Position numbers and translations under genes: made by a program
Shown here: piece after piece, positions 18,795 through 50,400 of the stretch
How positions within the stretch are numbered: position 1 is the first letter of the stretch
How the letters are laid out: every line of letters starts with the position of its first letter
Notes under the pieces: generated by a model
Told to the model about the DNA's origin: nothing
Databases searched by the model: none
Seen by the model: the letters and a program-made list of their open reading frames with translations, nothing else
IMG/VR virus record: IMGVR_UViG_3300008113_004357
Location: 3,285-67,284 of that record
Direction: 5' to 3' (one strand)
DNA from: a virus
Length of the DNA stretch: 64,000 nt

Positions 18795-19526
18795 CTACCA
18801 TGTAATAAACTTATATAGCTCTTTTGCGTAGAGCTCGTGAGGTTTTTCTCCGTGATGCCAATATTTTGCTAAAGAATTCTGATGACCTTCTCGCTGGTAC
18901 TTGAGATAAAAAGAGTTATTTGAATTATCAAAATCCATATATCGAGAACCGTCTATTAACTTTAAGTAAAAATCAGTCCATCGATCTCGTTTGACAAAGT
19001 GCATGGTATTACACATGACATACTGAATACCCATTGACTTAAAATAAGACTGTAGTTGATGTACAAGATTTAAACTTTGAATTTCTAAATATGACTGATT
19101 TGATGCCATGAACTTTTGATAAAATGGTATTAATCTTTTTTCCCAATCTGAATTTCCATTAAAGCCAGGATTTAATCTATAGAATACATTATTAGTATTT
19201 CCAAACCAAGAATTAGTTTCAGATATAATATATTTTGTTCCTAATTCTGACGGTATCTCCATACGCACACTTTCGGTCCATGCTACGCAGACAAATAGGT
19301 CCATACTTTCAGGATCATATTCTCTATGCATCCATTCTAATATTGATCTAGCTATAGTAGGGTTAGCCGATCCTGGAGAAGAAATATTAATAGGTCTATA
19401 CCCTAGCATCTCAGCTAATATGTTTCCAAATGATTTGCTTCTATTAAAATCAGAATCTAATTGCCCATCTATCTCTGATCCCGATGCGTGGCTGCATCCA
19501 GAGATTAACATTACTTTCTCTTTCAT
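18795..19526 (-). CDS. SGNH/GDSL-like hydrolase or acyltransferase
   Basis: ISGCSH (block I), GSAN (block II), C-terminal WHHGEKPH. Confidence 0.65.
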   Translation of the reverse strand: MKEKVMLISGCSHASGSEIDGQLDSDFNRSKSFGNILAEMLGYRPINISSPGSANPTIARSILEWMHREYDPESMDLFVCVAWTESVRMEIPSELGTKYIISETNSWFGNTNNVFYRLNPGFNGNSDWEKRLIPFYQKFMASNQSYLEIQSLNLVHQLQSYFKSMGIQYVMCNTMHFVKRDRWTDFYLKLIDGSRYMDFDNSNNSFYLKYQREGHQNSLAKYWHHGEKPHELYAKELYKFITW

Positions 19527-20779
19527 TTTACTAACCTTTGAACAGTTTTAAAAGTTGTTTTAGACAATAAACATTGATAATTATGATCTAATATTGATTG
19601 CATTTGATCGTACATGTCACGCAGTTCGTTAATAGATTTAGAATTTATATAATTTATAAGATTTAAAATTTTAATAGTTCGTACTTCATGATTAGATTCT
19701 TCATCATAACTTTCATCCCAGAAATCGCTAAATGTTTTAAATCCCATCCTTTTAGCATATTCTAAAGTGTACGGTGGTGCTACTAATATAAATGGTTTTT
19801 TATATCTTATAGCTTGATATAATTTTTCACTGTAATTTCCACAATGTTGCGCGAAACGTGTTTCATTAATTACATCACAAAAACTATCATTATAAAAATC
19901 TCCCAGTGGATTTAATTTAAAATTATTAATAGCAGGGGTTTCATAATTATCATAGCTTTCTGTTATAGGATAATAAGATGGATTTTCATTGTTTATATCA
20001 ACAGCATTAGTTGCTTTAATATCTAAACAAACAGGAGAATGATAATTTAAAATTTCAAATCCAGACATTAGTTGTTCGTATAATTCTTTATTTGTTTTTT
20101 TCCAATTGTGTATTGGAAAAAATAAATCATGTGCAAATGCTTGACCATTGCAATTAAAATACCAACTGTAGTTAGAAGAAACTGTTGATAAAAATGCTGT
20201 AATTAGATGACGGTGTTTTGTATATCTCCAATTTACACAAATAAACTTTTTAGTAAATTTGTTGTTAGGAAAACTTTCAAATAACGAGTAATTTTTTAAA
20301 AACAAATCATTTGTTACTAGTTTCATTATTTTAGTGTAATGTGGATGATAGTAGGCTACCTTATAATCGCAAGTATTCACTATTACTCTTTTTAATCCAT
20401 TACGTATAACATACTCTTTAATGCTGTCTAATTCGTCAGCTCTTATTTCGTTTAGATTTGTTTCAAAAGGAAACTCGCTGTAGAATCCTCTATTATGATG
20501 ATAATTCTCCCTACGAGAACAAATAGGCTCATATAAGAAAAAATATAAACCCAATCTATTCATAGTTTCCACATCACTGGCACTATGATTAATATTTTTT
20601 AATCCTGTCAATTCCCCGTTACCCATATAGACAAAAACAGGAATATGAGGAGCTAGGCCGGAAGAATTTCTAACTTGGGTCATGAATACATTTGCATCTG
20701 TTTCAGGGCGATTTTTCATGCCAGGAATACTAAACCAATGTAACTGAGTCAATTCGTGATCTGGCGGATTAGAGCTCAT
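19523..20779 (-). CDS. Putative glycosyltransferase (family B, GT10-like C-terminus), paralog 1
   Basis: KKFICVNWR..KHR, VINET, YSEKLY..I..KKPFIL, GFKTFSDFWDESYD. Confidence 0.55.
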   Translation of the reverse strand: MSSNPPDHELTQLHWFSIPGMKNRPETDANVFMTQVRNSSGLAPHIPVFVYMGNGELTGLKNINHSASDVETMNRLGLYFFLYEPICSRRENYHHNRGFYSEFPFETNLNEIRADELDSIKEYVIRNGLKRVIVNTCDYKVAYYHPHYTKIMKLVTNDLFLKNYSLFESFPNNKFTKKFICVNWRYTKHRHLITAFLSTVSSNYSWYFNCNGQAFAHDLFFPIHNWKKTNKELYEQLMSGFEILNYHSPVCLDIKATNAVDINNENPSYYPITESYDNYETPAINNFKLNPLGDFYNDSFCDVINETRFAQHCGNYSEKLYQAIRYKKPFILVAPPYTLEYAKRMGFKTFSDFWDESYDEESNHEVRTIKILNLINYINSKSINELRDMYDQMQSILDHNYQCLLSKTTFKTVQRLVK

Positions 20780-21275
20780 TAAGTTCTCCTGTAATTTGAA
20801 GTGTGTACCTATCTGCTATTCCAATATTACTAGCTGCATGGGGAACATCGTACTGCCAGAAAAAATAATCTCCTGCTTTCCAATTTACATAACCAACATC
20901 TGCTATTTCTAAATAATGTCCAGGTTTCCAATCTTCTAACATGATTAACACTCTACACACATTACTTGGAACTGCGTTAAATAATTTAGTGTAAGTTCTA
21001 AAATGATCTGTGTGCATGGGCATTATTTCTAAAGTACTCATTTTATAAAAATTATAGGTTTGATTTTTTAGACCGAACATATTATTAAATTTTTGTACCC
21101 AGTCTGGTAAAAGATTTTTACTGTCGTACATTGATCCTGTAAAACTTTTTACATAGTCGTAACCCTTTTCTTTCCATTGAGAAACTTCTTGTTCAGTAAC
21201 TGGTTGTTTAATATATGAAAAAGTTCTATAACTGTGATCCCAAAAAGGATTAACATGACCGGTATAAAAATTCAT
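20769..21275 (-). CDS. 2OG-Fe(II) oxygenase / cupin-fold protein
   Basis: HxD motif (PMHTD), distal His (VPHAASN) and Arg in RYTLQITG. Confidence 0.75.
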   Translation of the reverse strand: MNFYTGHVNPFWDHSYRTFSYIKQPVTEQEVSQWKEKGYDYVKSFTGSMYDSKNLLPDWVQKFNNMFGLKNQTYNFYKMSTLEIMPMHTDHFRTYTKLFNAVPSNVCRVLIMLEDWKPGHYLEIADVGYVNWKAGDYFFWQYDVPHAASNIGIADRYTLQITGELNEL

Positions 21276-22246
21276 GTGTGTTTCCTTTTTATATCAAGAG
21301 TAACGCAGTGAAATCCACCACCTAGTGTACGCTGTTGTCGCATAGGCAACATAGCACTATCAATATTATACTTTTCTAATTCTTTACGTAAATTATCTTG
21401 ATTTTCTTCTAATGCTACTAGATTAGGATTGACACTAAACAAGTTCATATTGATCCAAGTGCTGGCATTACAATAACCTGGATAGTGTCCAATATCTACA
21501 GGCTCAGGGCACCAAATATAATCCCAGCTTTGTAACGGTTTAGGCAATTGATCAATGCTCTTAATTCTACTAGGATTTAACAGCATTAGCCCTTCACGTA
21601 ATAGACAAATAGTACTGTCAAGATGCATATAACTATACACACCCTCGATAGTCCAAACTTTTTTATTTGGCATTAGTTCTTGAAGATATTCAGCACCTTT
21701 CTTGTTACCACTGTTGCTGACTAGATAATATAAGTTGTCGTTATCTCTTAATATATTAGCAGCATCAAATGCAGGTTCTGTTTCATTAAGTGCTAGTGTA
21801 TCAGGATCGCCGAGACAATTTAAATTGTATAAACTTTCATCGTATGAACACTTGGTAATCGTTACATAATTATTTTCAAAATGTTCTTGTAGGGCATAAT
21901 ATTCGTTATGTCTTGCTTTTAACGGCTGAGGAGTTGATAAGATTAGATTGTCATGTACTAACACTCCGTCTCTAGGACAATAGTTATAATAACTAGGAAC
22001 AACATTTTTATTTGGTCTCAATACAGACACATTACAAGATTTTAAAAACTCAACAAATTTTTCTAAATCTTCGTTGGCTTCGTTGATAACTTGTTGAGGA
22101 TAAGGTCCAACTAAAATTTCATCAATATTTTTTACATCTGCATAATTAACAGTTCGCAAACTAGTATCAATAGCAGGAATTTTAGCGTCATCTGCAACGC
22201 CAACTATAACTGTTTCTAATGGATCCCATTCGTTCTTACTTAACAT
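21272..22246 (-). CDS. Amidinotransferase (glycine / inosamine-phosphate amidinotransferase family)
   Basis: NEWDPLETVIVG, YCPRD, FDAAN, HLDST, GGGFHCVTLD (Asp-His-Cys triad). Confidence 0.9.
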   Translation of the reverse strand: MLSKNEWDPLETVIVGVADDAKIPAIDTSLRTVNYADVKNIDEILVGPYPQQVINEANEDLEKFVEFLKSCNVSVLRPNKNVVPSYYNYCPRDGVLVHDNLILSTPQPLKARHNEYYALQEHFENNYVTITKCSYDESLYNLNCLGDPDTLALNETEPAFDAANILRDNDNLYYLVSNSGNKKGAEYLQELMPNKKVWTIEGVYSYMHLDSTICLLREGLMLLNPSRIKSIDQLPKPLQSWDYIWCPEPVDIGHYPGYCNASTWINMNLFSVNPNLVALEENQDNLRKELEKYNIDSAMLPMRQQRTLGGGFHCVTLDIKRKHT

Positions 22247-22826
22247 TAAACACTCTCATTTTACTAATGTCAGGATAATCTTTATCACTCCAACATTTTG
22301 GTTTTAAATCTTTTATTTGTTCAAATCGTTGTATCCCTAACTCTGCAGATTCAGGTGTCATATAATAATGATATCCTAACAGATCAACATCTTGTTCTTT
22401 CCACAGTACGTCGGGCAATCTACCATCATAGCTCATTTTTTTTAAAATATTAGCAGCTTCTTGGTTGTCAGTTAAAATCATTCCGCCGCGGCCCAAATTA
22501 AGATGCTTTCTAAATTGAAAACTCAAACACATAAATGTGCCAGGAATATAACTATCTTTTTTCCATAAGACTGCTGCATCAATGATATTTGTATTACCAA
22601 TAAAATAATAGTCTTGCCATTGCGATTCAACAAACTCCCACGACAGTCCTAGTTTTTCAAATGTCATTGGTATAGATAGATATGTGTGTGCAGGGCAAGT
22701 TACTGACTTGGGAGTTGTGTAACGCAAGCAAAGTTCTACGGCATGAGTACAACTGTCTGTTGCAACTGCATACTCAGAACCAAAATAGTTTGCGATAATA
22801 TTTTCAAAGTCAGTTACTGGAGACAT
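22236..22826 (-). CDS. DegT/DnrJ/StrS-family PLP aminotransferase, compact form
   Basis: FE..IA.Y.G..YAVATDSCTHA, IIDAA, LSFQFRKHL..G.GGMILTD, GYHYYM; only 196 aa. Confidence 0.8.
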   Translation of the reverse strand: MSPVTDFENIIANYFGSEYAVATDSCTHAVELCLRYTTPKSVTCPAHTYLSIPMTFEKLGLSWEFVESQWQDYYFIGNTNIIDAAVLWKKDSYIPGTFMCLSFQFRKHLNLGRGGMILTDNQEAANILKKMSYDGRLPDVLWKEQDVDLLGYHYYMTPESAELGIQRFEQIKDLKPKCWSDKDYPDISKMRVFNVK

Positions 22827-25065
22827 TTTCTTTTGTTTTCTTAATACTAGAAATTGGAATTACTACATTAGAATGCATTGCTTGTTTTTCAGGTATGGCA
22901 TCCATGTTTGAAGCATTTGAAACTTCTACTTCGTATTCTTTAAAATTACCCCAGTGGCCTTGTCCTCTATATCTGTATTGAAAGGTGAAATTTATAGTAT
23001 TGTTTAATATTCTTTCTTCTTCTAAAAGATCATTAAAGTCATCACCACTTCTTCCGGCTTCAACATCCCATGTTGGTTTAGCTAACTTTCTTGCTCGCTT
23101 TGCAGTATTACTCATCATTCGACTATAGTCTTGAGCATAGAAAGGACCTTTACGTCCCCTAGGAGGTGGCTCTCTTTCGTCATAGGGATTATCAATTTGA
23201 TCAAATTTATATTTAAAGTCAGCAGCCCACTCACCGTCATCTGAAATTTTAAATTTAAATACTGCATTGTACATGCCTGGACCATACTGCGTTCCAAATT
23301 CTTTCAAATCAATTTCAGGATTAAATAAAATCTCAGCTTCATAGCCACCGCGAGTTTTCCATAGCATACGGAAGAATGGCCACATCTCATTTACTAGTGC
23401 GTCAGCAAAAGGATTAATGCTAGGTTTAATTATATCGTAATCAAATTTTTCATATTCAATTTCTTTTACAAGATAAGGATTGTTTAACTTTATTGAATAG
23501 TGCTCTTTAGCTAGATTAAATCTCACAGGATAACCAAACGGTACTTCTGTACAGCCTGTCATAAAATCTAGGAACATATGCATTATTTTAACACGAGACA
23601 TGACATGTGTGCCGCCCTTGGTAAAATCATTAGTGATCCAATGTCCTTGATATTTTTGCCAGCTGATATTAAACTTGTGGGGGTTTTGTCCAACAATAGT
23701 TTCTGGACCAAGTCCATATCCTACACCAGCACCTACGTTATTGATGTTCATGTTACGCATACGCCATAGTAACGTCATGCTGTCAGCAAAGTCTTGTAGT
23801 GTCTCTGTAGGGAATCCTACAATCCAATTAGTAGCTGCATAGATACCAACTTCTTTGCCATGCTTAAAGTTGTCTTCCATTTCTTTAATAGTAACACCTT
23901 TGGCCATGTCATCTAGAACATGTTGACTGCCGCTTTCGATTCCGTAGTTTAACATAATACAGCCGCCGGCCTTTAAATCTTTAAAGTACTCAAGGTCCAT
24001 GCGACCATCACAGCGAGCATAGCCTGTCCAGTTAATTTTTAGACCTTTGGCTTCAACTGCTTTACAAAAGGCACGTAGTTCTTTTAGGTTACCGTTAACT
24101 AGGCTATCAATGAACCAGATAACATCTACACCTTTGTTATAGTATAACCACTCTATTTCAGAAATTAAATCTACTGATTGACGTTGACGATATTTCCAAA
24201 AGTGTGTTTCTTCACAGAATGTACACTTGGCTGTACAACCTCGACTAATCTCTGTGTTAACTCCGTTAGGCAAATCGTAGAGACTAAAGTCAATGCTTTC
24301 GTAATCAGGCATTGGAAGTCCGTTAATATTGACACGTTCATATTCGTCTTGTGTTAATACAACAGGTTCAGTATGTTCTACTCCGTTTTCTACATCTTCT
24401 AATAACTTTAATAGATTAATTTCACCCTCACCTACTACAACATAATCATAATAAGGATGTACAGTAAACCAACTTTTGTGTGCGTTAGGTCCGCCAACTG
24501 CAATTTTAATATGCGGAGCACGGCGTTTTAATTCTTGGGCCATCCATTTAGTAGGTTCTTCACTGATGTAGTACATACTAAAACCGACAACCTGCGGATT
24601 CATTTCTATTATTTCTTCTATTGCCTGTTCAAGAATAGGTTGTAGAATAGGATGTATATCTTTCATATACGTTTCCCCTAACCAGTGCCAACTGGCTGCA
24701 GGGTCCCACAATCTAAAAGGAAGTTTATTATTAGGGATCCAATCTTCTTGATGAGCGCGATATGCTTTAACATTAAGATCCATAATATGAGTTTCATATC
24801 CTGCACTTTTAGCAACACCGCTTAATCTAGCAAGACTAAACGGAGGCATATAAGGACTCCATTCTGGACATAGTACTAAAACTAATTTGGTATTTCTAGT
24901 CTTGTAGTCTACGTAAACAGGAGTAAGATTTTTTTGTACAGTTGCTTTAGCATAGGGAGCAATGGCCTTCATCATAGACATATGACGTGCATCAGCTAAA
25001 TCTTCGGGCGGCTTTTCGGGCAGGACTACTTCTTTTTTAGCAAGTCCTTGTAGATTAAAATCCAA
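22810..25065 (-). CDS. B12-binding radical SAM enzyme (class B methyltransferase-like)
   Basis: PPFSLARL, VGFS, VGGP, VVGEGE, LP.PDY, SRGCTAKCTFC, GIESGS, IVGFPTET; TTG start after GGAG. Confidence 0.9.
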   Translation of the reverse strand: MDFNLQGLAKKEVVLPEKPPEDLADARHMSMMKAIAPYAKATVQKNLTPVYVDYKTRNTKLVLVLCPEWSPYMPPFSLARLSGVAKSAGYETHIMDLNVKAYRAHQEDWIPNNKLPFRLWDPAASWHWLGETYMKDIHPILQPILEQAIEEIIEMNPQVVGFSMYYISEEPTKWMAQELKRRAPHIKIAVGGPNAHKSWFTVHPYYDYVVVGEGEINLLKLLEDVENGVEHTEPVVLTQDEYERVNINGLPMPDYESIDFSLYDLPNGVNTEISRGCTAKCTFCEETHFWKYRQRQSVDLISEIEWLYYNKGVDVIWFIDSLVNGNLKELRAFCKAVEAKGLKINWTGYARCDGRMDLEYFKDLKAGGCIMLNYGIESGSQHVLDDMAKGVTIKEMEDNFKHGKEVGIYAATNWIVGFPTETLQDFADSMTLLWRMRNMNINNVGAGVGYGLGPETIVGQNPHKFNISWQKYQGHWITNDFTKGGTHVMSRVKIMHMFLDFMTGCTEVPFGYPVRFNLAKEHYSIKLNNPYLVKEIEYEKFDYDIIKPSINPFADALVNEMWPFFRMLWKTRGGYEAEILFNPEIDLKEFGTQYGPGMYNAVFKFKISDDGEWAADFKYKFDQIDNPYDEREPPPRGRKGPFYAQDYSRMMSNTAKRARKLAKPTWDVEAGRSGDDFNDLLEEERILNNTINFTFQYRYRGQGHWGNFKEYEVEVSNASNMDAIPEKQAMHSNVVIPISSIKKTKENVSSN

Positions 25066-25116
25066 GTTAATTCTCCTATCAAATATTTAACAGTTTTAAT
25101 TTTAGCCGTTTTTTTT

Positions 25117-26283
25117 CTAAACATTTACTGTGTCTAAACGATAACACGTTTTTTCCATCAATACTTGATAATTATGATCAAGAATTTCTTTGACAGCTTT
25201 CTGCCATTCAATCCATTGGCTATCGCTGAATTCGCACAACCTTAAAACTTCTTTCCAAATCATGTCCAGTCGTGCATGATCGTCAATTTCATTATCGTAA
25301 CTTTCGTCTATTAAGGGATCAAATGTTTTGTATCCTAATTTTTTTAAATGCTGCAATGAAAAGGGTCTTGACGCTAAAATGAAAGGGTGTTTTAATGCAA
25401 TTGGCCTAAATGTTTTTTCTGTTAAAAATATAGAATCCCTAGCATCTATATACGGAAAAAAGTCATTGTGCTCTTTGAAAAACAGAGTTTCAGTAACCAA
25501 ACTAAAATAACTGTCATTGTGATAGTGTATATCGTCAAGTCGTACATCAATTGGATTGTATCTATCATCAGGGACATTAAGGCGAAGCGGGAATATGTCT
25601 TGGTATCTCGTAAATAATTTACGCATTCTTTTATATTTCTGCGAATTACCTATACGATTTATCACATCTATACCATATTCAAAAGACGAATAAGTTTTTT
25701 CTAAAAGATTACTGTCAAGTATTTTGTAAAAAAGAAGTACTCTGTGTTCCCTTAACTGTTTGTTAAGACAACAAAATAATTTAGATTTTTTTTGAATTAA
25801 GTATTCAATTGTTGGATGATTAGTTTCACGATAGAAAACAGAAAGATTTTCTTTCATTACATTTTCAAAAACACTACTGCAACAAATCTCAAGTAATGGT
25901 TCTATATTTTGTTCTAAACAATAGTTTTGATATACTTCTTTTCCATTTTGTGCTGAGGTCAGATATATGTAAGAAACGCTGTAATCATTTATTTGTCTAA
26001 TAATTCTATGAATTTTTCTTATATGATCAAAGTAAACTGCTTCATTAACATTGTCAAATAAAATTCTTTTATATCCAGCACTGATTGCCGATTTGATAGA
26101 ATCTATTATTGGATCTGTTTCTATTTTAGGAAAGGGATAATTGAAATATGTTCCAGCATAAACATAGAAAGTCTTGCTGTCTATCTCGCCAATAACTTCT
26201 GTTAAAAATTTAATGCTTAAATCAATTTTACTTTGTTCTAAAATTAATTTTTTTTTTGGCGAGAATTGCCGTAGTGTATTAAT
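25117..26283 (-). CDS. Putative glycosyltransferase (family B), paralog 2; the frame is open ~140 codons upstream of its first ATG (25857)
   Basis: FCCLNK..REHR, SLVTET, FLTEKTFRPI..KHPFIL, GYKTF.PLIDESYD; no stop between 25858 and 26283. Confidence 0.65.
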   Translation of the reverse strand: MNTLRQFSPKKKLILEQSKIDLSIKFLTEVIGEIDSKTFYVYAGTYFNYPFPKIETDPIIDSIKSAISAGYKRILFDNVNEAVYFDHIRKIHRIIRQINDYSVSYIYLTSAQNGKEVYQNYCLEQNIEPLLEICCSSVFENVMKENLSVFYRETNHPTIEYLIQKKSKLFCCLNKQLREHRVLLFYKILDSNLLEKTYSSFEYGIDVINRIGNSQKYKRMRKLFTRYQDIFPLRLNVPDDRYNPIDVRLDDIHYHNDSYFSLVTETLFFKEHNDFFPYIDARDSIFLTEKTFRPIALKHPFILASRPFSLQHLKKLGYKTFDPLIDESYDNEIDDHARLDMIWKEVLRLCEFSDSQWIEWQKAVKEILDHNYQVLMEKTCYRLDTVNV

Positions 26284-27437
26284 TCAAAATTGGCACCATC
26301 TACAGTTTGCAATTTGCGCCACGGGTCTATTACAATAGATCCATTAGGGAATTCTACATATTTTACCCATTCTTCCCAGTAACCAATGAGATATACTTCA
26401 GTCCACTCAGATTTTAAATCTAAATCGCCTGTGTTTTTATCATAATAATTTACATTGCCACCTAGCTGTTCAATGTAATGGCCTACTAATAAACTGGGGC
26501 TTCCGATAGTATAATGTACACCCGGTTTGTATGCTTTACCTACTATGGTAACATTTTTACCTTGAGAGATACATTTTTTAGCAATGCGTTCAGATTGTAC
26601 TTCTCTAGCTGTCATAATAGCATCGAATAAATCATACCCCAGGTCAAGCTTGTCAGCTAGATATCTTAATGCTATGTTATCTCTTGGATGGCATGCGCCG
26701 CCATCACCGAGTCCTGCTGTCATATATGCAGGCCCCATAATACGATAAGAACTTTTTGCCAATGCATTAGTGACAACATCAACATTGATATTTCCATTTG
26801 TTTCTGCAACATCTTGTATCATATTAACCAGTGCTAGTTTTGTACTGATAAAAGTATTGTAAAAGATTTTAATGCTTTCTGCTTCGTCCCAAGTCCCAAC
26901 TTCATACCGTGGGTTATTTTTCATAAGAGGGTTATAAAAATCAATTAACTCTTGTGCATCACCAGTTAAACTGCCGTCTTCTGTACCTATGATAACCATT
27001 TCAGGATTAATCATATCATACTTAACTGTACCCATGGCAATAAGATACGGATTATAGATAAAACGAGCATTAGTTATTAAGGGCTCTAATTGAGATCTTA
27101 CAGTACCTGGTAAAACTGTACTGATTAAAACAACTAGTTGTTTTTTGTTAACATGTCTATTAACTTCTTGTAAAATATTCTTAACAATAGTGTAATCAAA
27201 ATCTTTATTTGGTAAATGACTTGTCGGTGTTTCGCCGCCGTACATAGGGTCATGTGGTGTAGGTGCCGCAATAAAAATAAAATTGCTGTCTTCTACTGCA
27301 TCTTTTATTGAAGACATCATAGGAAAAGCAGGCGATCTAGGCTCAACGTCATAGCCTACTACTTGGTAGTGTTCTGCCATTACTTCGGCGCAATCTTGCC
27401 CAAGTTTTCCAACACCAATCATAGCAACTTTAGTCAT
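26244..27437 (-). CDS. ugd: UDP-glucose 6-dehydrogenase family protein, full length
   Basis: IGVGKLG, AAPTP, STVLPGT, YNP, AESIKIFYN, GGACHPRDN, GKAYKPG, IDPWR. Confidence 0.88.
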   Translation of the reverse strand: MTKVAMIGVGKLGQDCAEVMAEHYQVVGYDVEPRSPAFPMMSSIKDAVEDSNFIFIAAPTPHDPMYGGETPTSHLPNKDFDYTIVKNILQEVNRHVNKKQLVVLISTVLPGTVRSQLEPLITNARFIYNPYLIAMGTVKYDMINPEMVIIGTEDGSLTGDAQELIDFYNPLMKNNPRYEVGTWDEAESIKIFYNTFISTKLALVNMIQDVAETNGNINVDVVTNALAKSSYRIMGPAYMTAGLGDGGACHPRDNIALRYLADKLDLGYDLFDAIMTAREVQSERIAKKCISQGKNVTIVGKAYKPGVHYTIGSPSLLVGHYIEQLGGNVNYYDKNTGDLDLKSEWTEVYLIGYWEEWVKYVEFPNGSIVIDPWRKLQTVDGANFELIHYGNSRQKKN

Positions 27438-27466
27438 TTATATTCCTCAAAAAACTATTTATTAAG

Positions 27467-28264
27467 TTAAAACCAATCTATTTTTATTTCTTTATTCATC
27501 ACAACTGGAGGGTTATTAGCGTCTAAATTAAACGTGTGATGAATATCATCAACAGTTGGACAAGCTTTTAAAAGTTTAGTAGATTGTATAGCGTACTTGT
27601 AGGTTTCTTGTGATATGTCAAAACCCACTTTTTTTAAATATGCATAATATCTTGCCGGAGACGGATGGTAATCTTGAAATTTAATTCCCTGTTGCGGGTG
27701 ATCATAAACGTGCCCATGGTCCCAATGTCCTCTCATTTCTGTTTGAAATAAGTTAGGCAAACATATGCTAGTTACAGGTTTATATACATTCAATATTTTA
27801 CCAATATCTTGTGTTTCTTCATTTTGATAATTCCAAGGAACACTAGTAAGAAAAATATAATCACATGGCAAACTATCAAGTAATCCTTTGGTCAAACTTA
27901 CAACATTTAAATCTCTTAAAATATAGCCTTTTGTATCGCAGAATTTTTTAACAAAATTTTCAGGATAATATGCTTGAGTGAATATGTTTCCTGGTGTCTG
28001 CCAATGATCGTTTACGTATCTATCTTCTCTACAAAAAGTTGTCCACATTACCACAACTAGATCATCCTCTGTATAATTTAATTTAGTGTTACCTTCAGCT
28101 ACTTTATACGAAATAAAAGGGTTGCCAGCTCCAGATTTTCCTAGGTTAATAAACTCTGTGTCTGGCATAGTATGTGCAAGAATATCTGCCCAGGTTGGCC
28201 AAATATATTTTGTAAAACTACATCCAACTGTAATTAATCTTTTATATTTTTTTAAATTTAACAT
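27467..28264 (-). CDS. SGNH/GDSL-like protein
   Basis: TVGCSFT, GKSGAGN, DYHPS; TTG start overlaps the upstream stop. Confidence 0.7.
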   Translation of the reverse strand: MLNLKKYKRLITVGCSFTKYIWPTWADILAHTMPDTEFINLGKSGAGNPFISYKVAEGNTKLNYTEDDLVVVMWTTFCREDRYVNDHWQTPGNIFTQAYYPENFVKKFCDTKGYILRDLNVVSLTKGLLDSLPCDYIFLTSVPWNYQNEETQDIGKILNVYKPVTSICLPNLFQTEMRGHWDHGHVYDHPQQGIKFQDYHPSPARYYAYLKKVGFDISQETYKYAIQSTKLLKACPTVDDIHHTFNLDANNPPVVMNKEIKIDWF

Positions 28265-29397
28265 AATTTTGTTGTAAAGGTCGATTTTGAAAGCAAAGTA
28301 TCAAAATTATATTTGCATATAGATTTAGAAAAATCTAAAAACTCTGCTAGCTCAGTTGTATTTAAGTTAGATAAACGCTCAATTTCATCTACTATGGCTA
28401 TCATACGTTTTACATCGTCTTCAATAAGATCGTATGCTTCATTAATATACGGATGAAAAGTTTTATAACCTATAGACCTAATTGCTTCTAGACTGTTAGG
28501 TCTACTTACAATTATAAAAGGATGGAAATTTGCAATTGGTTTAAAAAGTTTTTCGCTTAAAAATCTTCCCTTTTCTAGAAAATCATAATAATTTGTTTCG
28601 CTTACTACACTAAAATAAGTTTCTTCATAAAATTTAGTAGTACTTTGCAATAAGGTAACATGGTTAATCTCCATGTCTGTCCTATCTACAAATAACTCTG
28701 GCAATGATAAAATTTTATCTTTATTATTTTTTAAAAACTCTAATTCTGTATAATGATTTCTATGGATATCTAAAATGTCGTTCCAAACTTTATCCCAAGT
28801 TTTGTTATCGTCCGATTTTGCTAAACTTACATATCCATAATCTAGCAAATTTCTAGCAGCCAAAAATGCTACTAACGCAGGTCGATGAAATCTCCATCTT
28901 CTGTTTAAATTTAAAAACTTTTTAGAATAATTTTTTATATTAAGAGTATCCGGTAAAACATAACCCATACTAGTTACATCGCACTTTGTTGATAGTTCAA
29001 AAACTCTTGACCATTCGGATGTAATAGGTTTACAATTATATTTTTTAGATACTATACCAATTTCAACAGCTATATCCGCAGACTCGCTTAATAGTAATAT
29101 TTGTTCTTCGGGAATTTTAAATTTAATAACAACAAATTTATAAATTCCATCAACTACAGAATGAAACGCTTCATGGCTGTTATTTAAAATTAACTTGATT
29201 CGTTTACGTCGAATTGAAATCAAAATATTAGACGGAACAACTTTGTTTAAATGCTCAAGTCCTTCACCTGTCATAAAGTCGACACAAAAATACTGTGCAT
29301 CATTAAACTTTCTCATTCGAGGAAGAACAGTTTCGTCCCGCATAGAGATTTCACTATTTCCGTCAATATAAGGAACTACGTTGTTTACTATAGACAT
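28258..29397 (-). CDS. Putative glycosyltransferase (family B), paralog 3
   Basis: KKFLNLNRRWRFHR, FSVVSET, FLSEKLFKPI..FHPFII, GYKTFHPYINEAYD. Confidence 0.6.
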   Translation of the reverse strand: MSIVNNVVPYIDGNSEISMRDETVLPRMRKFNDAQYFCVDFMTGEGLEHLNKVVPSNILISIRRKRIKLILNNSHEAFHSVVDGIYKFVVIKFKIPEEQILLLSESADIAVEIGIVSKKYNCKPITSEWSRVFELSTKCDVTSMGYVLPDTLNIKNYSKKFLNLNRRWRFHRPALVAFLAARNLLDYGYVSLAKSDDNKTWDKVWNDILDIHRNHYTELEFLKNNKDKILSLPELFVDRTDMEINHVTLLQSTTKFYEETYFSVVSETNYYDFLEKGRFLSEKLFKPIANFHPFIIVSRPNSLEAIRSIGYKTFHPYINEAYDLIEDDVKRMIAIVDEIERLSNLNTTELAEFLDFSKSICKYNFDTLLSKSTFTTKLC

Positions 29398-30363
29398 TTA
29401 AATCATTTCAAATTTAGGAATTATAATATCTGTTCCGCAATGGCAATGTTCTTTACCGCACATAATCTTTTTAGGACCAACTGCACTAATATCTTGCAAT
29501 ATATGACCAATTTTGTCGCCTTGGCCGCAACTGGCTAAACTTACATCACCTGACGGATTTATAAAGATTGAGTCTCCAACACTACATATCCAATCTTTAA
29601 AAAAGTTTTGGCCGTTAACAATAATCTCATTACTATTAGTCGGAGATTTTGTTCCGTCAGAATATCTATTATAACTTACTGCTTTACTTTCTTTGCGAGG
29701 TTTATTAATAGTAAAATTCATTTCTACATTATGTTCATCAATAAACTTTTTCTTTTCAGGATCTTTGTATTCCCACGGTCCAGCGTTAACACTCATTTCA
29801 TCAAACAACGGAGTCCATTCAATAAAATAGTTAGGCATTACAGTTTTCAAATGCTCGCCATATTCTACAACTTCCCAAAATCTTTCTTCGTGCATTAACA
29901 TTTTTGTACAAAGGTAATTTACTTTATCGCAGAGAAAAATGTTGTTTTCTTTATATTTTTCTTTGTCAGAAAATTCTACATGAAAACTAGCTACTATGTC
30001 ATCAAAGAGGTGATAATGTTTTTCCCACCAGGCCAAAGGTCTACTGAGGTTAGTATTAACTGCTAGGGTGCAATTAGGCAACTGTTCTCTTAACCATTCG
30101 CAAATGGGAATAAAATTTTTCCACGCAGTTGGTTCTCCGCCGCTAAAGAAAAACTTATAATGTTTGTACCCAACACTTTTATACCTATCAATAATAATTT
30201 TAAGATTTTTTAAATAGACATCTAAATTATCGTCATTGCGAAAATTTCCTCCCCAGTTGCCGGGATTACAATAACTACATTTAAAATTACAAAAATTATT
30301 AACTTGCCATGTAACCGCTAGATAAGGCTCAGGAGCAAATATAGATATTAATTTTTTGCCCAT
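29398..30363 (-). CDS. Radical SAM protein with a C-terminal Cys-rich twitch-like domain
   Basis: CNFKCSYC, SGGEPT, C-terminal C..G...SC...C..C.CGTD. Confidence 0.9.
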   Translation of the reverse strand: MGKKLISIFAPEPYLAVTWQVNNFCNFKCSYCNPGNWGGNFRNDDNLDVYLKNLKIIIDRYKSVGYKHYKFFFSGGEPTAWKNFIPICEWLREQLPNCTLAVNTNLSRPLAWWEKHYHLFDDIVASFHVEFSDKEKYKENNIFLCDKVNYLCTKMLMHEERFWEVVEYGEHLKTVMPNYFIEWTPLFDEMSVNAGPWEYKDPEKKKFIDEHNVEMNFTINKPRKESKAVSYNRYSDGTKSPTNSNEIIVNGQNFFKDWICSVGDSIFINPSGDVSLASCGQGDKIGHILQDISAVGPKKIMCGKEHCHCGTDIIIPKFEMI

Positions 30364-31607
30364 CTATAGACCTCTTTAAGTTCTGGAATAACATCTAAAA
30401 TACTTTCGTTGCGAGCGGCGTCTAACTCGTCATTAAATTTAATAAACTCTTGTATACCACCTTTGTTAGGATCTCCGCTTTTTAAATTTTGACTTATCAT
30501 TTTAAACCCGTTGCTAATCTCAGGATTATACGAATACTTGTGAATGTATTCTCGATATAATCTACCTAACTTTTCTTTTGAGAATTCAGGGAGAATCATA
30601 ATATTGGAATACCAAGGACTGGTAGCAAGATTAAATCTAGGCACAGTATTCTTGTCAATTAGTTCGTTGTCGATCAAGTAGTCAAAGAATTTAGGAAATT
30701 GAAATACGTTCCAAATACTAATAGTAGGAGTTATTTGGAACTGTGCGTGGGGTACTAGTTCTTTTAGTTCTCTTAAGTTTTTCTCTATCCTATCCCAATC
30801 AGTACCTTTACGAATTAATTCGCTATGTGGTCCCATGCCGTCTAGGCTAGCCCAAATAATTAAGTTAGGAAATTTTTTCCAATAATCAATTAAGTCTTTA
30901 TCTTTAAACTTAAGGCTGCTAAAGTTTGTTGTATAACTTAACTCAATAGTTTCATTTATACCATTTTCAATCCAGTAGTCTAAACACTCATAATGTTCTG
31001 GAGTGATAATAATTTCGCCGCCTGCAAAATATACTTCAACTACATCTTTAAGGTACGGTTTTAATTTAGTCATTAACACTTGATCATCGTTGTTACTAAC
31101 TACCATTTTAGTCATGTTAAAATGTTTGTTTAAAACTTCAACACCTTTTTGGTCAATAAATTCCTGTGCCCATTGACTAGAACAGCTTGGTCCGCAACTA
31201 CGACATTTCATATTGCAGAGATTACTAAAACGAATGTCCATGTACTTTAACTTAAATTCGTTTAAACTTCCATCGTCATTAGTGTCCTCAACTGTGTCAA
31301 CAAAATCAAGTCCTCTGCGTCTGTTATGACTTTGTCTCATAGTCCACGTGCCTAATTTTTCGAGATCGTAGCATCGTTGGCATGCTTCAACTGGTTCGTC
31401 ATTGAGCATGTTTAATCGCATTTTCTTATACTCTTCACTGTTCATCATTTCAAGTATAGATTCATTTGATTTGATTTCACCTACTGGTTTATTACTGTCA
31501 GCTACACAGCATGGCAACACCCTGCGATCTGGCCAGGCATGAAAATGAATCCAAGGAAGGATACAAAAGTGTTTTCCATTTTCAACAAGCTCTGTTACGT
31601 TTTTCAT
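30348..31607 (-). CDS. Radical SAM protein with an N-terminal SPASM/twitch-like Cys cluster
   Basis: FCILPW...PCC...CQRCY, then SNLCNMKCRSC and FAGGE. Confidence 0.9.
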   Translation of the reverse strand: MKNVTELVENGKHFCILPWIHFHAWPDRRVLPCCVADSNKPVGEIKSNESILEMMNSEEYKKMRLNMLNDEPVEACQRCYDLEKLGTWTMRQSHNRRRGLDFVDTVEDTNDDGSLNEFKLKYMDIRFSNLCNMKCRSCGPSCSSQWAQEFIDQKGVEVLNKHFNMTKMVVSNNDDQVLMTKLKPYLKDVVEVYFAGGEIIITPEHYECLDYWIENGINETIELSYTTNFSSLKFKDKDLIDYWKKFPNLIIWASLDGMGPHSELIRKGTDWDRIEKNLRELKELVPHAQFQITPTISIWNVFQFPKFFDYLIDNELIDKNTVPRFNLATSPWYSNIMILPEFSKEKLGRLYREYIHKYSYNPEISNGFKMISQNLKSGDPNKGGIQEFIKFNDELDAARNESILDVIPELKEVYRWAKN

Positions 31608-31609
31608 TG

Positions 31610-32848
31610 TTACTCCGTTAGATTCATAAGTCTATTTAATTCTGGGAAAGTTTTAATGAAACTTTCACCTCTAATTTTATCAGTTGACAAGACATGCATA
31701 AAAAATGTCTTTTTATTTTCATCCCAAGTGTTGCTTTCATCTGCAAATTTTATTGCATCTGTTACAAGATTGTTTAACAGCACCCATTCAGGACCGTTAG
31801 AAGATATAAATTTTTCTGCATTTTCTTTTGCAGCTGCCTTTAAAATTTTTGGCATACTTTTAGCAGAATAATAACTAGGATGAACGGCAAGATATAAACT
31901 GTGATACCAGTCGTCCAATCTTACAATATTTTTTTCCTTAAGATAGTTATAAAAATCTCCAATAGTCAGATAATTGAAAATACTGAATACTGTGTTTATT
32001 TGAAAATGTACATAGTCTAATTGTCTAAAAGTAAGCAGGTTACTTTCAACTTTACCCCAATCTGTACCGTGACGTAACCACTCTGCTCGTTCGCCGTAAT
32101 GGTCAATTGAACAGCTTAATTCAACACGTTTAAAATGTTTCCACAAGTCTAGTATGTCATGATTTTTATATTTAATATTGCTGGCATTAGTGTTATAACG
32201 TAAAGTTACATCAGTTCTACCCTTACGAATCATTTCTTCAAGGATAGTGTAGTGCTCATCTGTGATTAAAGGTTCGCCTCCAGCAAAGTAAGCAAGATCG
32301 ATGTGTTCAATGTGTGTTAGTACTTCATTAAGCAAATCGCCTTTACCGTCATCGGCATGAATAACTATAGGATGATTAGGATCAAAATTTGCTTTTTGTT
32401 CGGCGGCCCATTGACTGCTAAATTCAGCACCACAGGTTCTACATTTAAAATTACAAATATTACTAAAACGTATGTCGTAATATTTCATTTTAAAATCTGG
32501 CATTGTGCCATCTACTTGTGTTTGTGGCACTAGTTCGTCAAAATCTTTTCCCCAATGTTCTTTGCTATAATTTCTAAAACTGTGAGGACCTGCTTCTTCA
32601 TGCTTATAACAAAACGTACAAATTTCACTTTTAGTTTCGTTTAACATGTTAAGACGAATAGTTTTCATCTTGTCGTTATTAAACGCATCTTTTAATGTTG
32701 TTTGCTTTGTATTACCAAATGGAGTAGTATAGTTGTTACTACAGCAAGGGTATATGTCTCCTTTTGGTGTTACATTTAAATGCATCCATGGAAACATGCA
32801 AAATACTTTGCTTTCATTTAATAAAAAATCTTTATCTATATTGTTCAT
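31610..32848 (-). CDS. Radical SAM protein with an N-terminal SPASM/twitch-like Cys cluster
   Basis: FCMFPW...PCC...CTFCY, then SNICNFKCRTC and FAGGEP. Confidence 0.9.
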   Translation of the reverse strand: MNNIDKDFLLNESKVFCMFPWMHLNVTPKGDIYPCCSNNYTTPFGNTKQTTLKDAFNNDKMKTIRLNMLNETKSEICTFCYKHEEAGPHSFRNYSKEHWGKDFDELVPQTQVDGTMPDFKMKYYDIRFSNICNFKCRTCGAEFSSQWAAEQKANFDPNHPIVIHADDGKGDLLNEVLTHIEHIDLAYFAGGEPLITDEHYTILEEMIRKGRTDVTLRYNTNASNIKYKNHDILDLWKHFKRVELSCSIDHYGERAEWLRHGTDWGKVESNLLTFRQLDYVHFQINTVFSIFNYLTIGDFYNYLKEKNIVRLDDWYHSLYLAVHPSYYSAKSMPKILKAAAKENAEKFISSNGPEWVLLNNLVTDAIKFADESNTWDENKKTFFMHVLSTDKIRGESFIKTFPELNRLMNLTE

Positions 32849-47415: not shown

Positions 47416-50400
47416 TTAATATTTATCTTGATACTTATTTGGCCAAACTGACGGGGTATCTTTTAAGAAACTAGCTATCGTATTATTAGATTTAGCCAGT
47501 CTCTGTCCTAGATCGTTCCATAGTTTGCCCTGCTTTTTAACTACTACAACTTTAAGCTCAACTTTTGCATTATTAGCTAAAGTTTTAATAGGTAACTCAG
47601 TTAATTGTAAACGAGTCGTTCCAGTTGTGTTAAATTCTTTAACAACTGTTTGATCTCCTTCAGGGCTGTACGGATATTCAGTGTTAAGATACTCTGTGTA
47701 TTCAGATTTTCTTAATCTTCTTCCGCCTACAAAAATTTCAATTTCATTGATTTTTGGAATATAGGGTAACTCTATAATACCCTGAGTGTACAATAACGGA
47801 TCGTCAATTGGATTGCCTGTTTTAACTATTTCAGTATCTTTATAAGGAATTGTTTCAGAAGCACCAATGCCCTGAACTACGCTACCTGATTCGTGATAAA
47901 CCGGCAGGCCTGTTCCTAGTGTACCTCGACGCAACTGTCCTAGATTATTACCAGTCTTGCTAAAATATTCAATACGTTCTCCGTTAATTTCAATAATTCC
48001 AGGAATATTTTTAGCAGGATTTGGATCATCTAACGCTGAAGAATCTACAACAGATATTGTGTTATCACCCTGATATAGATTTCGTGTTAGTGTTGTGGCT
48101 TTATTCTTATTAAGTCTCTTATAATGAACTCTGTTCAATATATCCTTAAACTGCATGTAGCCAAAACTTTCACTTACTACGGTATTTGTAAAGGCAATAA
48201 TCTGAATAGCATCAGCATCTGTTAGATAATTTGCTAATCTTATAGTGATATGATCTTTATCAAGATAGTAATCAACATTGTTGATTAGTAAATTACCATT
48301 CTTAATTACCCATACAAAATCACCGGACACCGCAGTTTTACGCAGTCTAAAACTGCCGCCTAGCTTGCCTGCAAGTTCATAAAAATCTGGAGTGCCTGGA
48401 GCAATTTGTGTAATCGGAATAAGCGTATCGATTGTTCTTTCTACATCTAAAATATTATGATTATAGAAACTAACAATTTCAAATTTAGTTCCGTTTGTAT
48501 ATGTATTTTTAAATGTAATTGAATTAGTAGTTGTGATATAATCTCCAGTATTATCTATCACTACAGAAAAATCTTTACCTTCTTGATATCTAATTTGATT
48601 GAGAATTACTGTAATATTTGGAGGATTTTGTCTTACAACAAAATTAGCAGAAATAGTTGCACCACTGCCTGTGCCGCCTGAAATTGCAAACGGACTTGTA
48701 GGAGGTGTAACATATACGCCCAATCCTACTACAATAACTTCTTGAATCTCTCCAGTAAATTGATTAATACGTGTAACTTCTAATTTAACAGGAGAGCCAG
48801 CAATGCCTTGATCACCACCAATTGCATCAATAATGTCACCTACAATATAACCAGTTCCGCCGGAAGGAACAACTGAATCTTTTTCAACTTCATAGGTAAA
48901 AATTGTATAATCTAGTTCAACATTAAAGTCAGGACCTTGTACTAGCTCTTCTTCATCAATATAAACTTTTACATCGTTAGTATTAATTAAACTAGGATCG
49001 TACTTGTGATCTTTTAAACTATATGATAACAGATTGTTTGTCATAGTGAAATAATCAGCTGCTCTAGGAGTAAGAAAACTTTGACCTTGTTTTACTAACA
49101 CATTTTGGTCGTAAGGTTTGTTTGTGCCAATCTTGTTAGAAAGATTGTATGTAGATTGTCCTGTTAGATATACTATCTCTTCCGATCTAACAATAGTAGC
49201 ATTATTTTCTACATTTCCAGAGTCAATAATATAATTTATTAGTGCGCCCATTGCCGGCGGAGTAGCAAATTGGATTCCTATTCTTGATCTCCAAGATTGA
49301 TCTATCTTATCTGTATACTCGTCGTCTGTGCTGAACAGCGAATATTCTGCTAATTCACCGTTGACTAGTACAATGGCTGTAGCAGTTACAAACCATCCTG
49401 CTTTAGTAATAAATTCTTTAGTAACTCCATCGCCAACAAAATAATCAGTATCTAACATGTTAGACGATGAAAATCCAATACTTATAATTGAAATTACCTG
49501 ATTTGCTGGCGGCATTGTTGTAAATTCTATTTTGTTATTTTGATAATCAATTATATAATCATCATCTATTTTTTTAATTTGATCATCAATTTTAACAATT
49601 ACTGAAGTATCAATTTGTCCAGGAACAAGTTCTTCTGTTCCGCCATTGCGTTCAACAGAAACAAAATCATCTCCATCTAATACAATATCATCAGGTGATA
49701 AACCTGTTGCACTGGTTAACGCACCGTTATTGAACGAACCTCCAGACAACTGTGTGTCGTAGGTATCTTCGTCCATTGGGTAACTACCATCCGATTCTTG
49801 CTTTCTAAATATGATTCTATCACCATATTTTCCAGCAAACTGTGTAGTTTGAATTTCTCTTAATTGTAAATTTACAGATACAGGAACATTAATAATGTCA
49901 AAAGCATTATTTCCAGTAAATGTTAACATCACTGCATCTGCATTTGTCTGTAATGGAGTACTGTAATAAGGATCATCAATTCGTACTGGAGTATCGTACT
50001 TGTTACCCCAAACATAACCTCCTATACCTAGTTGAGGTGTTTCTTCTAAAATAATAATAAACTCTTTGTTTGACACAAGTCGTTTAACAATATGAATACC
50101 ATTACAGTTAGGATCAGGATCACTAGGATTAGCTTTAACTACTCCTTCAATAATAATAGTTGCGCCAAGATCTAATTTATGATCTTCTTGCGTTACAATT
50201 TTTACTGCATTTGATTCGCTGTTAAACACAGTAATTGAATTAATTAGCGAAACATTAAACCTAGAAACGTAGGTGTTTACCTGTTGATTATTTGACGGAA
50301 TATAAGGCAATCTAAACTCTGTGACGCCAGATTGTGTAACTGTGACTATATAATCGGTAAATTTTGGATTATAATTATCCCATAACCCAACACCCCACGG

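Follow-up and report, generated by a model that had tools for sequence, protein, structure and literature searches.

How is a protein made from a reading frame that has no start codon of its own? This question is raised by a locus in a 64-kb stretch of viral DNA (the window, meaning the whole stretch analysed), which is part of the 67,284-bp IMG/VR virus record IMGVR_UViG_3300008113_004357 with a CheckV completeness of 19%. On the minus strand of the window, the gene for a nucleotide-sugar dehydrogenase, ugd, ends in a run of ten A's (A10), and behind this run a glycosyltransferase (GT)-like frame, here called X, continues in the -1 frame without an ATG, GTG or TTG. We consider it probable that programmed slippage on the run, either transcriptional or by -1 ribosomal frameshifting, yields two products, Ugd alone and a 773-amino acid (aa) Ugd-GT fusion. 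An earlier, sequence-only reading of the window had proposed that A10 joins ugd to a start-less GT-like frame in a fusion of about 770 aa; the comparison with relatives presented here supports this proposal, and the predicted product counts 773 aa. The elements of the locus, including the open reading frame (ORF) reported by gene callers, are:

26244..27437, minus strand: ugd, nucleotide-sugar dehydrogenase of 397 aa with the stop TAA at 26246-26244, recognised by its Pfam domains and phrog_9148.
26248..26257, minus strand: A10 slippery tract, read as CAA AAA AAA AAT in the ugd frame and as CCA AAA AAA AAA in the X frame.
25117..26247, minus strand: X, GT-B fold glycosyltransferase-like region of 376 codons plus the stop at 25117-25119, recognised by homologs, an AlphaFold2 model and structural matches.
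25858..26247, minus strand: first 130 codons of X, which lack a start (no ATG, GTG or TTG) and lie in the -1 frame with respect to ugd.
25117..25857, minus strand: ATG-started 246-aa ORF reported by gene callers, a shortened X (P0003 is the same product) with its start inside the model helix 126-142.
25117..27437, minus strand: predicted 773-aa Ugd-X fusion, which would arise by one extra A in the RNA or by a -1 ribosomal shift.

The upstream partner matches two Pfam domains of the UDPG_MGDP_dh type above the cutoff, the central domain with E 5.9e-17 (62 bits) and the N-terminal domain with E 5.8e-16 (59 bits). The C-terminal UDP-binding domain reaches 17.4 bits (Pfam cutoff 30) and TIGR03026 reaches 156.5 bits (cutoff 189.8), both under the cutoff, and the match to phrog_9148 ('UDP-glucose dehydrogenase') has an E of 2.4e-100. 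Judged by these profiles, Ugd is a member of the UDP-glucose/GDP-mannose dehydrogenase family with a putative sugar substrate. The 3' end of the gene reads GGC AAT TCT CGC CAA AAA AAA AAT TAA, and the protein ends in HYGNSRQKKN. Two zero-frame slippery heptamers of the type X_XXY_YYZ are present in the ugd frame, CA[A AAA AAA] and [A AAA AAT].

On the same strand, the -1 frame is open from 26280 (INTLRQFSPKKKLILEQSK..., reading SPKKKLILEQSKIDLSIKFLTEV) to the stop at 25117-25119. An ORF list that counts each frame from the first ATG, GTG or TTG past a stop opens the X frame only at ATG 25857, which leaves the 130 codons from 26247 to 25858 without a canonical start. The sequence-only reading had described the ugd end as CGC CAA AAA AAA AAT TAA with A10 at 26257-26248, followed by 130 open codons that lead into the ORF at 25117-25857 without ATG, GTG or TTG; inspection of the minus strand, translation and the ORF list confirm each of these points.

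By comparative evidence, the start-less 130 codons are conserved coding sequence, because homologs align with them, their ratio of nonsynonymous to synonymous divergence (dN/dS) is about 0.20, and they form the N-terminal domain in a confident structural model. With the 376-aa X as query, 349 homologs were obtained at E <= 0.001 among 2560 candidates, and a Pfam domain was present in one row only. Homologs of 325-385 aa span the start-less region; a 23-sequence alignment contains the conserved blocks FYVYAG and ILFDNxNEAVYFDxIRKIHRI and places the N-termini of the homologs opposite the first 35 residues past the ugd stop. Selection was evaluated against the nearest other lineage, L004, whose protein is 78% identical. 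For the whole of X, dN/dS is 0.13 at a synonymous divergence (dS) of 1.01, and both lineages have no stop in the 376 codons. The ratio is 0.196 (dS 0.80) for codons 1-130, which lie ahead of the window ATG, and 0.275 (dS 1.03) for codons 1-43, which lie ahead of the first ATG of the L004 lineage. The other two frames of the same bases give 0.83 and 1.42 and contain 13-15 stops. These values bear on the explanation that X is dead or dying, i.e. a start-less remnant of an ancestral fusion that was split by a one-base deletion in the run. Fusions are indeed the neighbouring state on the Ugd tree and homopolymers are hot spots for insertions and deletions, but this explanation is very unlikely in view of the purifying selection on X, which extends to its start-less part, and of the persistence of the start-less arrangement in at least seven lineages.

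X has two paralogs in the window, which correspond to the 379- and 418-aa ORFs that the sequence-only reading had compared with an extended protein of about 376 aa; this relationship holds.

28258..29397, minus strand: 379-aa paralog of X (BLASTP E 4e-25, 32% identity over 230 aa).
19523..20779, minus strand: 418-aa paralog of X (BLASTP E 9e-15, 24% identity over 364 aa).

Profile searches with X gave no Pfam or PHROG match and no credible NCBIfam match. The AlphaFold2 model, built from 65 aligned sequences, has a predicted local distance difference test score (pLDDT) of 93.7 and a predicted template modelling score (pTM) of 0.92 and consists of two tandem Rossmann-like domains. The first domain has four strands (residues 26-30, 61-66, 92-97 and 120-124), all within the start-less part of the model, and a product started at ATG 25857 (residue 131) would be devoid of the N-terminal domain. 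Foldseek returned 11 matches at E <= 0.001, all of them GT-B glycosyltransferases, with probabilities of 0.91-1.00 and TM-scores of only 0.26-0.43. In VIA-align, the best matches were T4 beta-glucosyltransferase (Z 10.0) and alpha1,3-fucosyltransferases (Z 9.2-9.5), followed by the phage HY126 glycosyltransferase and T4 alpha-glucosyltransferase (Z 8.9 each). Thus, X is GT-like at the level of the modelled fold, as the sequence-only reading had called it, and a function cannot be read from a similar fold alone. In the output of gene callers, X appears as shortened proteins of 246-335 aa (P0003, P0002), by which one whole domain is missed; judged by their start positions, P0007, P0011, P0018 and P0022 are probably shortened calls of X as well.

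The relatives in which the arrangement of both genes was compared comprise 41 viral loci, 80 of 557 matching metagenomic loci and 44 loci of bacterial genomes, which were classed by tblastn with Ugd and X. ugd is located directly upstream of X in 33 loci and in the window, which together provide 29 distinct junction sequences. In nine of these (L013, L014, L045, L047, L051, L053, L057, L060, L065), both genes form one in-frame fusion ORF, and a run of at least eight A's is found in none. In 16 distinct junctions X is in the -1 frame, and 15 of these have at least eight A's, 14 of them at least nine: A10 is present in the window, the L002/3/4/7 group, L005 (same contig as L043), L012 and L042; A9 in L006, L008, L017, L044, L046, L048, L049, L050 and L119; and A8 in L067, which has an ATGA start at the ugd stop. 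The only -1 junction without a run, L069, is an ordinary TAATG overlap. Finally, X is in the +1 frame in four distinct junctions (L009/L011, L010, L055, L068), of which one, L009/L011 with A10, contains a run of at least eight. All four have an ATG or GTG ahead of the conserved X N-terminus, which is located where X overlaps the 3' end of ugd or, in L009/L011, is present as MSGP. Where ugd has no X downstream, none of the 17 loci ends in an A run of at least seven. The association of the run with the -1 frame (15 of 16 versus 1 of 13 junctions) has a p of 3e-6 in a Fisher test in which the junctions are treated as independent, and the -1 state is retained among lineages whose X proteins are only 33-50% identical. 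Conservation of the A run together with the -1 arrangement, which the sequence-only reading had proposed to look for in relatives, is therefore found. The 44 loci of bacterial genomes contain only a distant X (at most 46% identity in the best segment and at most 34% in matches longer than about 120 residues), and ugd is directly upstream in none of them.

The same junctions bear on the trivial explanation that the homopolymer was miscounted in sequencing or assembly and that the gene in reality has A11 and is fused in frame. Homopolymers are error-prone, and the tract lengths compared here are those of consensus sequences (contigs). Nevertheless, A10 recurs in five contigs of different samples and in a Logan contig of another study, and all 15 distinct A8, A9 and A10 junctions put X at -1. 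A miscount would predict fusions with a long run as the commonest state, and these are found in none of the nine in-frame fusion loci; the combination of A10 and a +1 frame in L009/L011 is also unlike a one-base undercount. As far as these sequences go, a homopolymer miscount cannot explain the junction pattern, and we regard it as extremely unlikely.

The fused loci are informative for the predicted product itself. Six database proteins of 759-790 aa (P0123-P0128) contain the Ugd Pfam domains and X in frame, with no A run at the junction. In these proteins and in the nine fusion ORFs, the domains, their order and the HYG(N/D)(T/S)R joint are as in the predicted window product, and the linker is of similar length: from HYGN to the first strand of X it comprises 41 residues in the window product and 40 in the natural fusion P0126 (HYGNSRQKKKLILEQSK...FYVYA versus HYGNTRPNKKKIEDQEF...YYVNA). 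The natural fusions differ from the window locus in that they use one frame and have no A run at the junction. The best identity of a fusion protein to the window X is 38%, and no close relative is seen as an in-frame fusion.

Some of the fused loci show further combinations. In L013:2729-5809, L014:2816-5950, L053:1169-4354 and L060:1250-4459, the fusions run on into a third C-terminal domain and reach about 1030-1070 aa; an NPPH-like motif in this domain presumably indicates a methyltransferase. In addition, X occurs as an X-X tandem (P0122, 750 aa) and in fusions of an NAD-dependent epimerase/dehydratase with X (P0129 and P0130, 706-728 aa). By these protein sequences, the X-type GT family is repeatedly fused to sugar-nucleotide enzymes.

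A run that occurs at the junction where the frame changes could still be a by-product of base composition. In the window, the A10 tract is the sole A/T run of at least nine; it accounts for two overlapping 9-mer matches, whereas 8.7 +/- 4.7 are expected from dinucleotide shuffles. Outside the junction, the run-bearing loci (n=15, 103.6 kb) contain eight runs with a length of exactly eight and no longer one, and the fused or run-less loci (n=13, 77.6 kb) contain one A9. Elsewhere, KKK is encoded by at least nine A's in none of 13 cases in the loci and in none of four in the window. At the junction, AAG occurs solely as the last of the three Lys codons, and solely where an AGA ahead of the lysines keeps A9 (AGA AAA AAA AAG), with L067 (A8) as the exception. 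The in-frame fusion junctions do without KKK (e.g. RKRETRY, RLKHKYE, RPKGNFQ), and therefore the dehydrogenase needs no lysine tail. Compared in this way, the run looks selected, beyond composition.

The tract length is also constant where the same locus was recovered repeatedly. The stretch is found in 19 public runs from 13 studies, which represent lake and freshwater metagenomes. Over the 26 nt of the junction, A10 among them, the window does not differ from L002, L003, L004 and L007, a sister lineage from other samples (dS about 1), and the flanks differ at synonymous sites. In the public run X10, which belongs to an independent study, a 652-nt Logan contig spans the tract as A10 without mismatch or gap, and all four matches in a scan of viral contigs for A8-A12 patterns are A10. 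Contigs of run X8 do not cover 25924-26594. In run X12, two Logan contigs meet at the tract (25778-26269 and 26246-27500), and this break at the homopolymer could, as a weak hint, reflect heterogeneous lengths at the level of reads.

These data bear on phase variation at the DNA level, in which replication slippage would toggle the tract between A10, with Ugd alone and X switched off, and A11, with the fusion and X switched on. According to the section of PMC3711429 drawn on here, slippage of poly-A tracts occurs in replication besides transcription and translation, and the contigs of run X12 that break at the tract provide the weak hint mentioned above. An ON allele is, however, not seen among the consensus sequences of the window, the four related contigs and the X10 contig, or in the A8-A12 scan, all of which have A10. 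Furthermore, the fusion proteins include no close relative, and the -1 state is stable across lineages with strongly diverged X proteins. We thus regard phase variation as improbable. The sequence-only reading had left the choice between ratio control and an on/off switch for one glycan step: ratio control fits best, and the on/off switch finds no support.

A different way of making X would be initiation at a non-canonical codon. Seven distinct lineages (the window, the L002-4/7 group, L005, L006, L008, L042 and L044) have no ATG, GTG or TTG ahead of the conserved X N-terminus; the run is common to all seven, and no near-cognate codon is shared at one place. In the window, TAATT holds both the ugd stop and the near-cognate ATT 26244-26242, at which X could start by itself; termination-reinitiation would then produce a separate 375-aa transferase and no fusion. 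TAATT is an analogue of the common TAATG overlap and is kept in the window and in L002, L003, L004 and L007, and the homologs P0036 and P0048 begin with MVTLE(A/Q) exactly opposite KLILEQ of the window. In the part of bioRxiv 10.1101/063800 considered here, AUU is described as a proven though rare bacterial start, used in infC and pcnB, but its initiation in E. coli amounts to only 1-2% (0.02-3%) of that of AUG. Moreover, a motif like the Shine-Dalgarno sequence (SD) is present ahead of 17 of the 28 same-strand ORFs but neither in the 22 nt ahead of ATT 26244 nor ahead of any of the seven near-cognate codons within the first 45 codons. L005, L006, L008, L042 and L044 have no near-cognate codon at the matching place, and the run is kept in all of them. 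Independent initiation at ATT is therefore unlikely in our view.

Programmed slippage, the reading we prefer, rests on a start-less and selected X that has long been kept behind an otherwise avoided run, on a predicted product that equals the hard-wired fusion, on the absence of the run where no frame change is needed, and on the lack of a shared alternative start. X, having no start codon of its own, would be expressed through ugd. Most transcripts or ribosomes would give the 397-aa dehydrogenase, which ends at the TAA one codon past A10, and a fraction would move to the -1 frame, either when RNA polymerase adds one A (A11 RNA) or when the ribosome slips on A_AAA_AAA/A_AAA_AAT. With A11, the sequence reads CAA AAA AAA AAA TTA ATT TTA GAA (QKKKLILE), which puts X in frame, and the shifted reading would lead to the 773-aa Ugd-X (...SRQKKK-LILEQSK...). 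The outcome would be a fixed ratio of free dehydrogenase to dehydrogenase-transferase, in which the transferase is tied to the sugar-nucleotide provided by Ugd. We infer the slippage itself, its rate and the machine that slips; transcription is favoured only slightly over the ribosome, because the runs are 9-10 long, not 7, and because the window is without a stimulatory structure, and the product would be the same either way.

The RNA downstream of the tract differs between lineages. L004 has no significant structure at this place (z = -0.33). L005:4033-4102 contains a strong hairpin 4 nt past A10 (-16.9 kcal/mol, z = -4.05, matched in 0 of 200 shuffles), which is placed like a stimulator of -1 ribosomal frameshifting and which its sister L006 is without (z = -1.36).

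Several observations weigh against programmed slippage or reduce the strength of its support. The support is comparative throughout, and the only RNA data set among the four public runs whose contigs were compared, X20, covers only 26496-26707, outside the tract. The p of the Fisher test overstates the case because the lineages are related: on the best Ugd tree, the state '-1 with run' requires six changes, but the starred branches force only two, and a test with independent pairs gives p = 1, with three usable pairs (one concordant and two uninformative) and hence no power. Part of the run is compositional, since AAA is favoured for Lys (372 AAA versus 80 AAG). L009/L011 has A10, yet X is in the +1 frame. 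With regard to stimulatory elements, the window has no significant structure downstream of the tract (70 nt, z = -0.75, 41 of 200 shuffles as stable; 100 nt, z = -1.47, 16 of 200). A conserved upstream hairpin of the IS630 type was not detected (0 predicted pairs in 13 aligned upstream regions), nor was an SD-like stimulator in the 22 nt before 26244 or, by eye, a conserved purine-rich block in the 13 upstream regions.

A further objection comes from seven of the -1 lineages with a run (L012, L017, L046, L048, L049, L050, L119), in which X has an ATG 10-22 codons past the run, with the -1 frame open in between. In six of these seven, the X AUG is part of a GC-rich hairpin (L012:3905-3960, L017:3930-3986, L046:1732-1788, L048:2405-2460, L049:1550-1604, L050:2546-2600). 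For these hairpins, z lies between -2.1 and -4.5, and 0-8 of 200 shuffles are as stable. The ATG (M[ST/Q]GP...) is located in the 3' arm, about 25 nt past the A run, and the stems vary by locus (GCCCAGACA/UGUCUGGGC versus GGCCCC/GGGGCC). The consensus fold of the seven sequences is weak (5 pairs, -1.7 kcal/mol, MAFFT alignment), which is probably due to the alignment, and the single-sequence folds are the evidence for the hairpin. By position and fold, it looks like a device that masks the start codon for translational coupling to ugd. This weakens the argument from the run, which is not always a sign of dependence on slippage, as the clade with the hairpin may reach X otherwise.

One observation concerns the run-bearing locus with X in the +1 frame. 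L009:1221-1234 (= L011) branches within the -1 clade; X has an ATG of its own there, and its frame contains no stop across the run. If the RNA lost one base or gained two, ugd and X would be fused in this locus.

Recoding at such sites is known from several systems. In the phage tail assembly chaperones G/GT, a conserved -1 shift near the end of the upstream gene sets a fixed ratio of short product to fusion, as is proposed for ugd-X; they differ in being structural chaperones, not enzymes, and their slippery sites are usually heptamers without long homopolymers. To our knowledge, most cases of programmed slippage so far concern transposases, dnaX, secretion-system genes and tail chaperones.

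In the passages of the reports cited here, runs of nine A or T are described as causing transcriptional slippage in bacteria, e.g. in T. thermophilus dnaX (PMC5009743), A runs with n > 7 are termed slippage-prone, and two-ORF dnaX genes with A10 are reported (PMC3711429). The E. coli RNA polymerase shows no slippage under eight A's, and the T7 RNA polymerase has a strong insertion bias on poly(A) (PMC6260861). As the reported thresholds are 8-9, A10 meets the length needed for slippage of RNA polymerase. The closest worked example for ugd-X, by analogy, appears to be C. rodentium tssM1, in which slippage on an A11 ahead of the stop gives two products, both of which are required, as is their ratio, according to the cited portion of PMC4256274. 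In both cases, poly-A directly precedes the stop of the upstream frame (A11 there, A10 here), and an extra A extends, or in the window would extend, the protein, with two products as the result. In tssM1, slippage restores one canonical protein, whereas in the window locus it would link two enzymes for which some relatives have separate genes; the setting differs as well, since ugd-X belongs to uncultured freshwater phages and is known from their sequences.

The dnaX genes share other features with ugd-X, as far as the cited excerpts describe them. The run (A9 in T. thermophilus, A10 in the two-ORF genes) is part of the coding sequence, stops in the other frames are close by, and the run is conserved together with the frame break (PMC5009743, PMC3711429). 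In two-ORF dnaX, the long product needs the shift, as is proposed for ugd-X (PMC3711429). The protein is a different one, and the shift in Thermus leads to the short product, while in ugd-X it would lead to the long product (PMC5009743). The zero-frame A_AAA_AAA/A_AAA_AAT of the window resembles the -1 frameshift site of E. coli dnaX, A_AAA_AAG (PMC5009743), and this exact heptamer is present as AGA AAA AAA AAG in L017, L046, L049, L050, L067 and L119. E. coli dnaX, however, relies on an SD-like element ahead of the site and a stem-loop behind it (PMC5009743), of which the window has neither, and the runs of ugd-X exceed what a heptamer requires. The recoding proposed for ugd-X is thus of a known kind; for this protein pair and phage group, a full-text literature search, judged by titles and the beginnings of abstracts, found no prior description.

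The genomic surroundings are those of a phage. The window contains tail-fibre and baseplate genes by PHROGs matches, and cultured phages gave no match in 50,697 phage records (megablast of 24000-29000, tblastn of X). The glycan gene cluster is located directly beside the tail module. A single 4677-aa ORF (47416-61449, minus strand) adjoins a baseplate-wedge homolog at 61449-63923 (phrog_10646, E 1.5e-161) and tail-fibre-like genes. Two adjacent paralogs of 419 and 412 aa (30348-31607 and 31610-32848, minus strand) have an N-terminal SPASM domain (residues 15-80) followed by the radical SAM core (126-287), which is the reverse of the usual order. In addition, a 196-aa ORF (22236-22826, minus strand) matches the DegT/DnrJ/EryC1 aminotransferase profile of Pfam, which has 360 positions, at positions 163-240 only; by its partial match, it may be a fragment or form a split gene with its 324-aa neighbour (21272-22246, minus strand).

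For the family as a whole, we lean modestly towards the view that these tailed phages, uncultured and mostly of freshwater origin, make a bifunctional dehydrogenase-glycosyltransferase at a set ratio to free dehydrogenase through a conserved poly-A site, and that the gene pair has moved repeatedly among fused, slippage-coupled and separately initiated states, the last in part with a start codon hidden in a hairpin. If this is true, a conserved recoding site would be added among the auxiliary glycan genes of phages, and the loci would constitute a natural series in which recoding arises from, or resolves into, gene fusion. The fusion also provides a Rosetta-stone link, which predicts that the unnamed GT-B family uses as donor what the dehydrogenase next to it makes, a UDP-uronic acid or a similar compound. 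Because fused, slippage-coupled and separate forms coexist in related phages, they would offer a comparative system for understanding why a fixed ratio of the two enzymes is selected.

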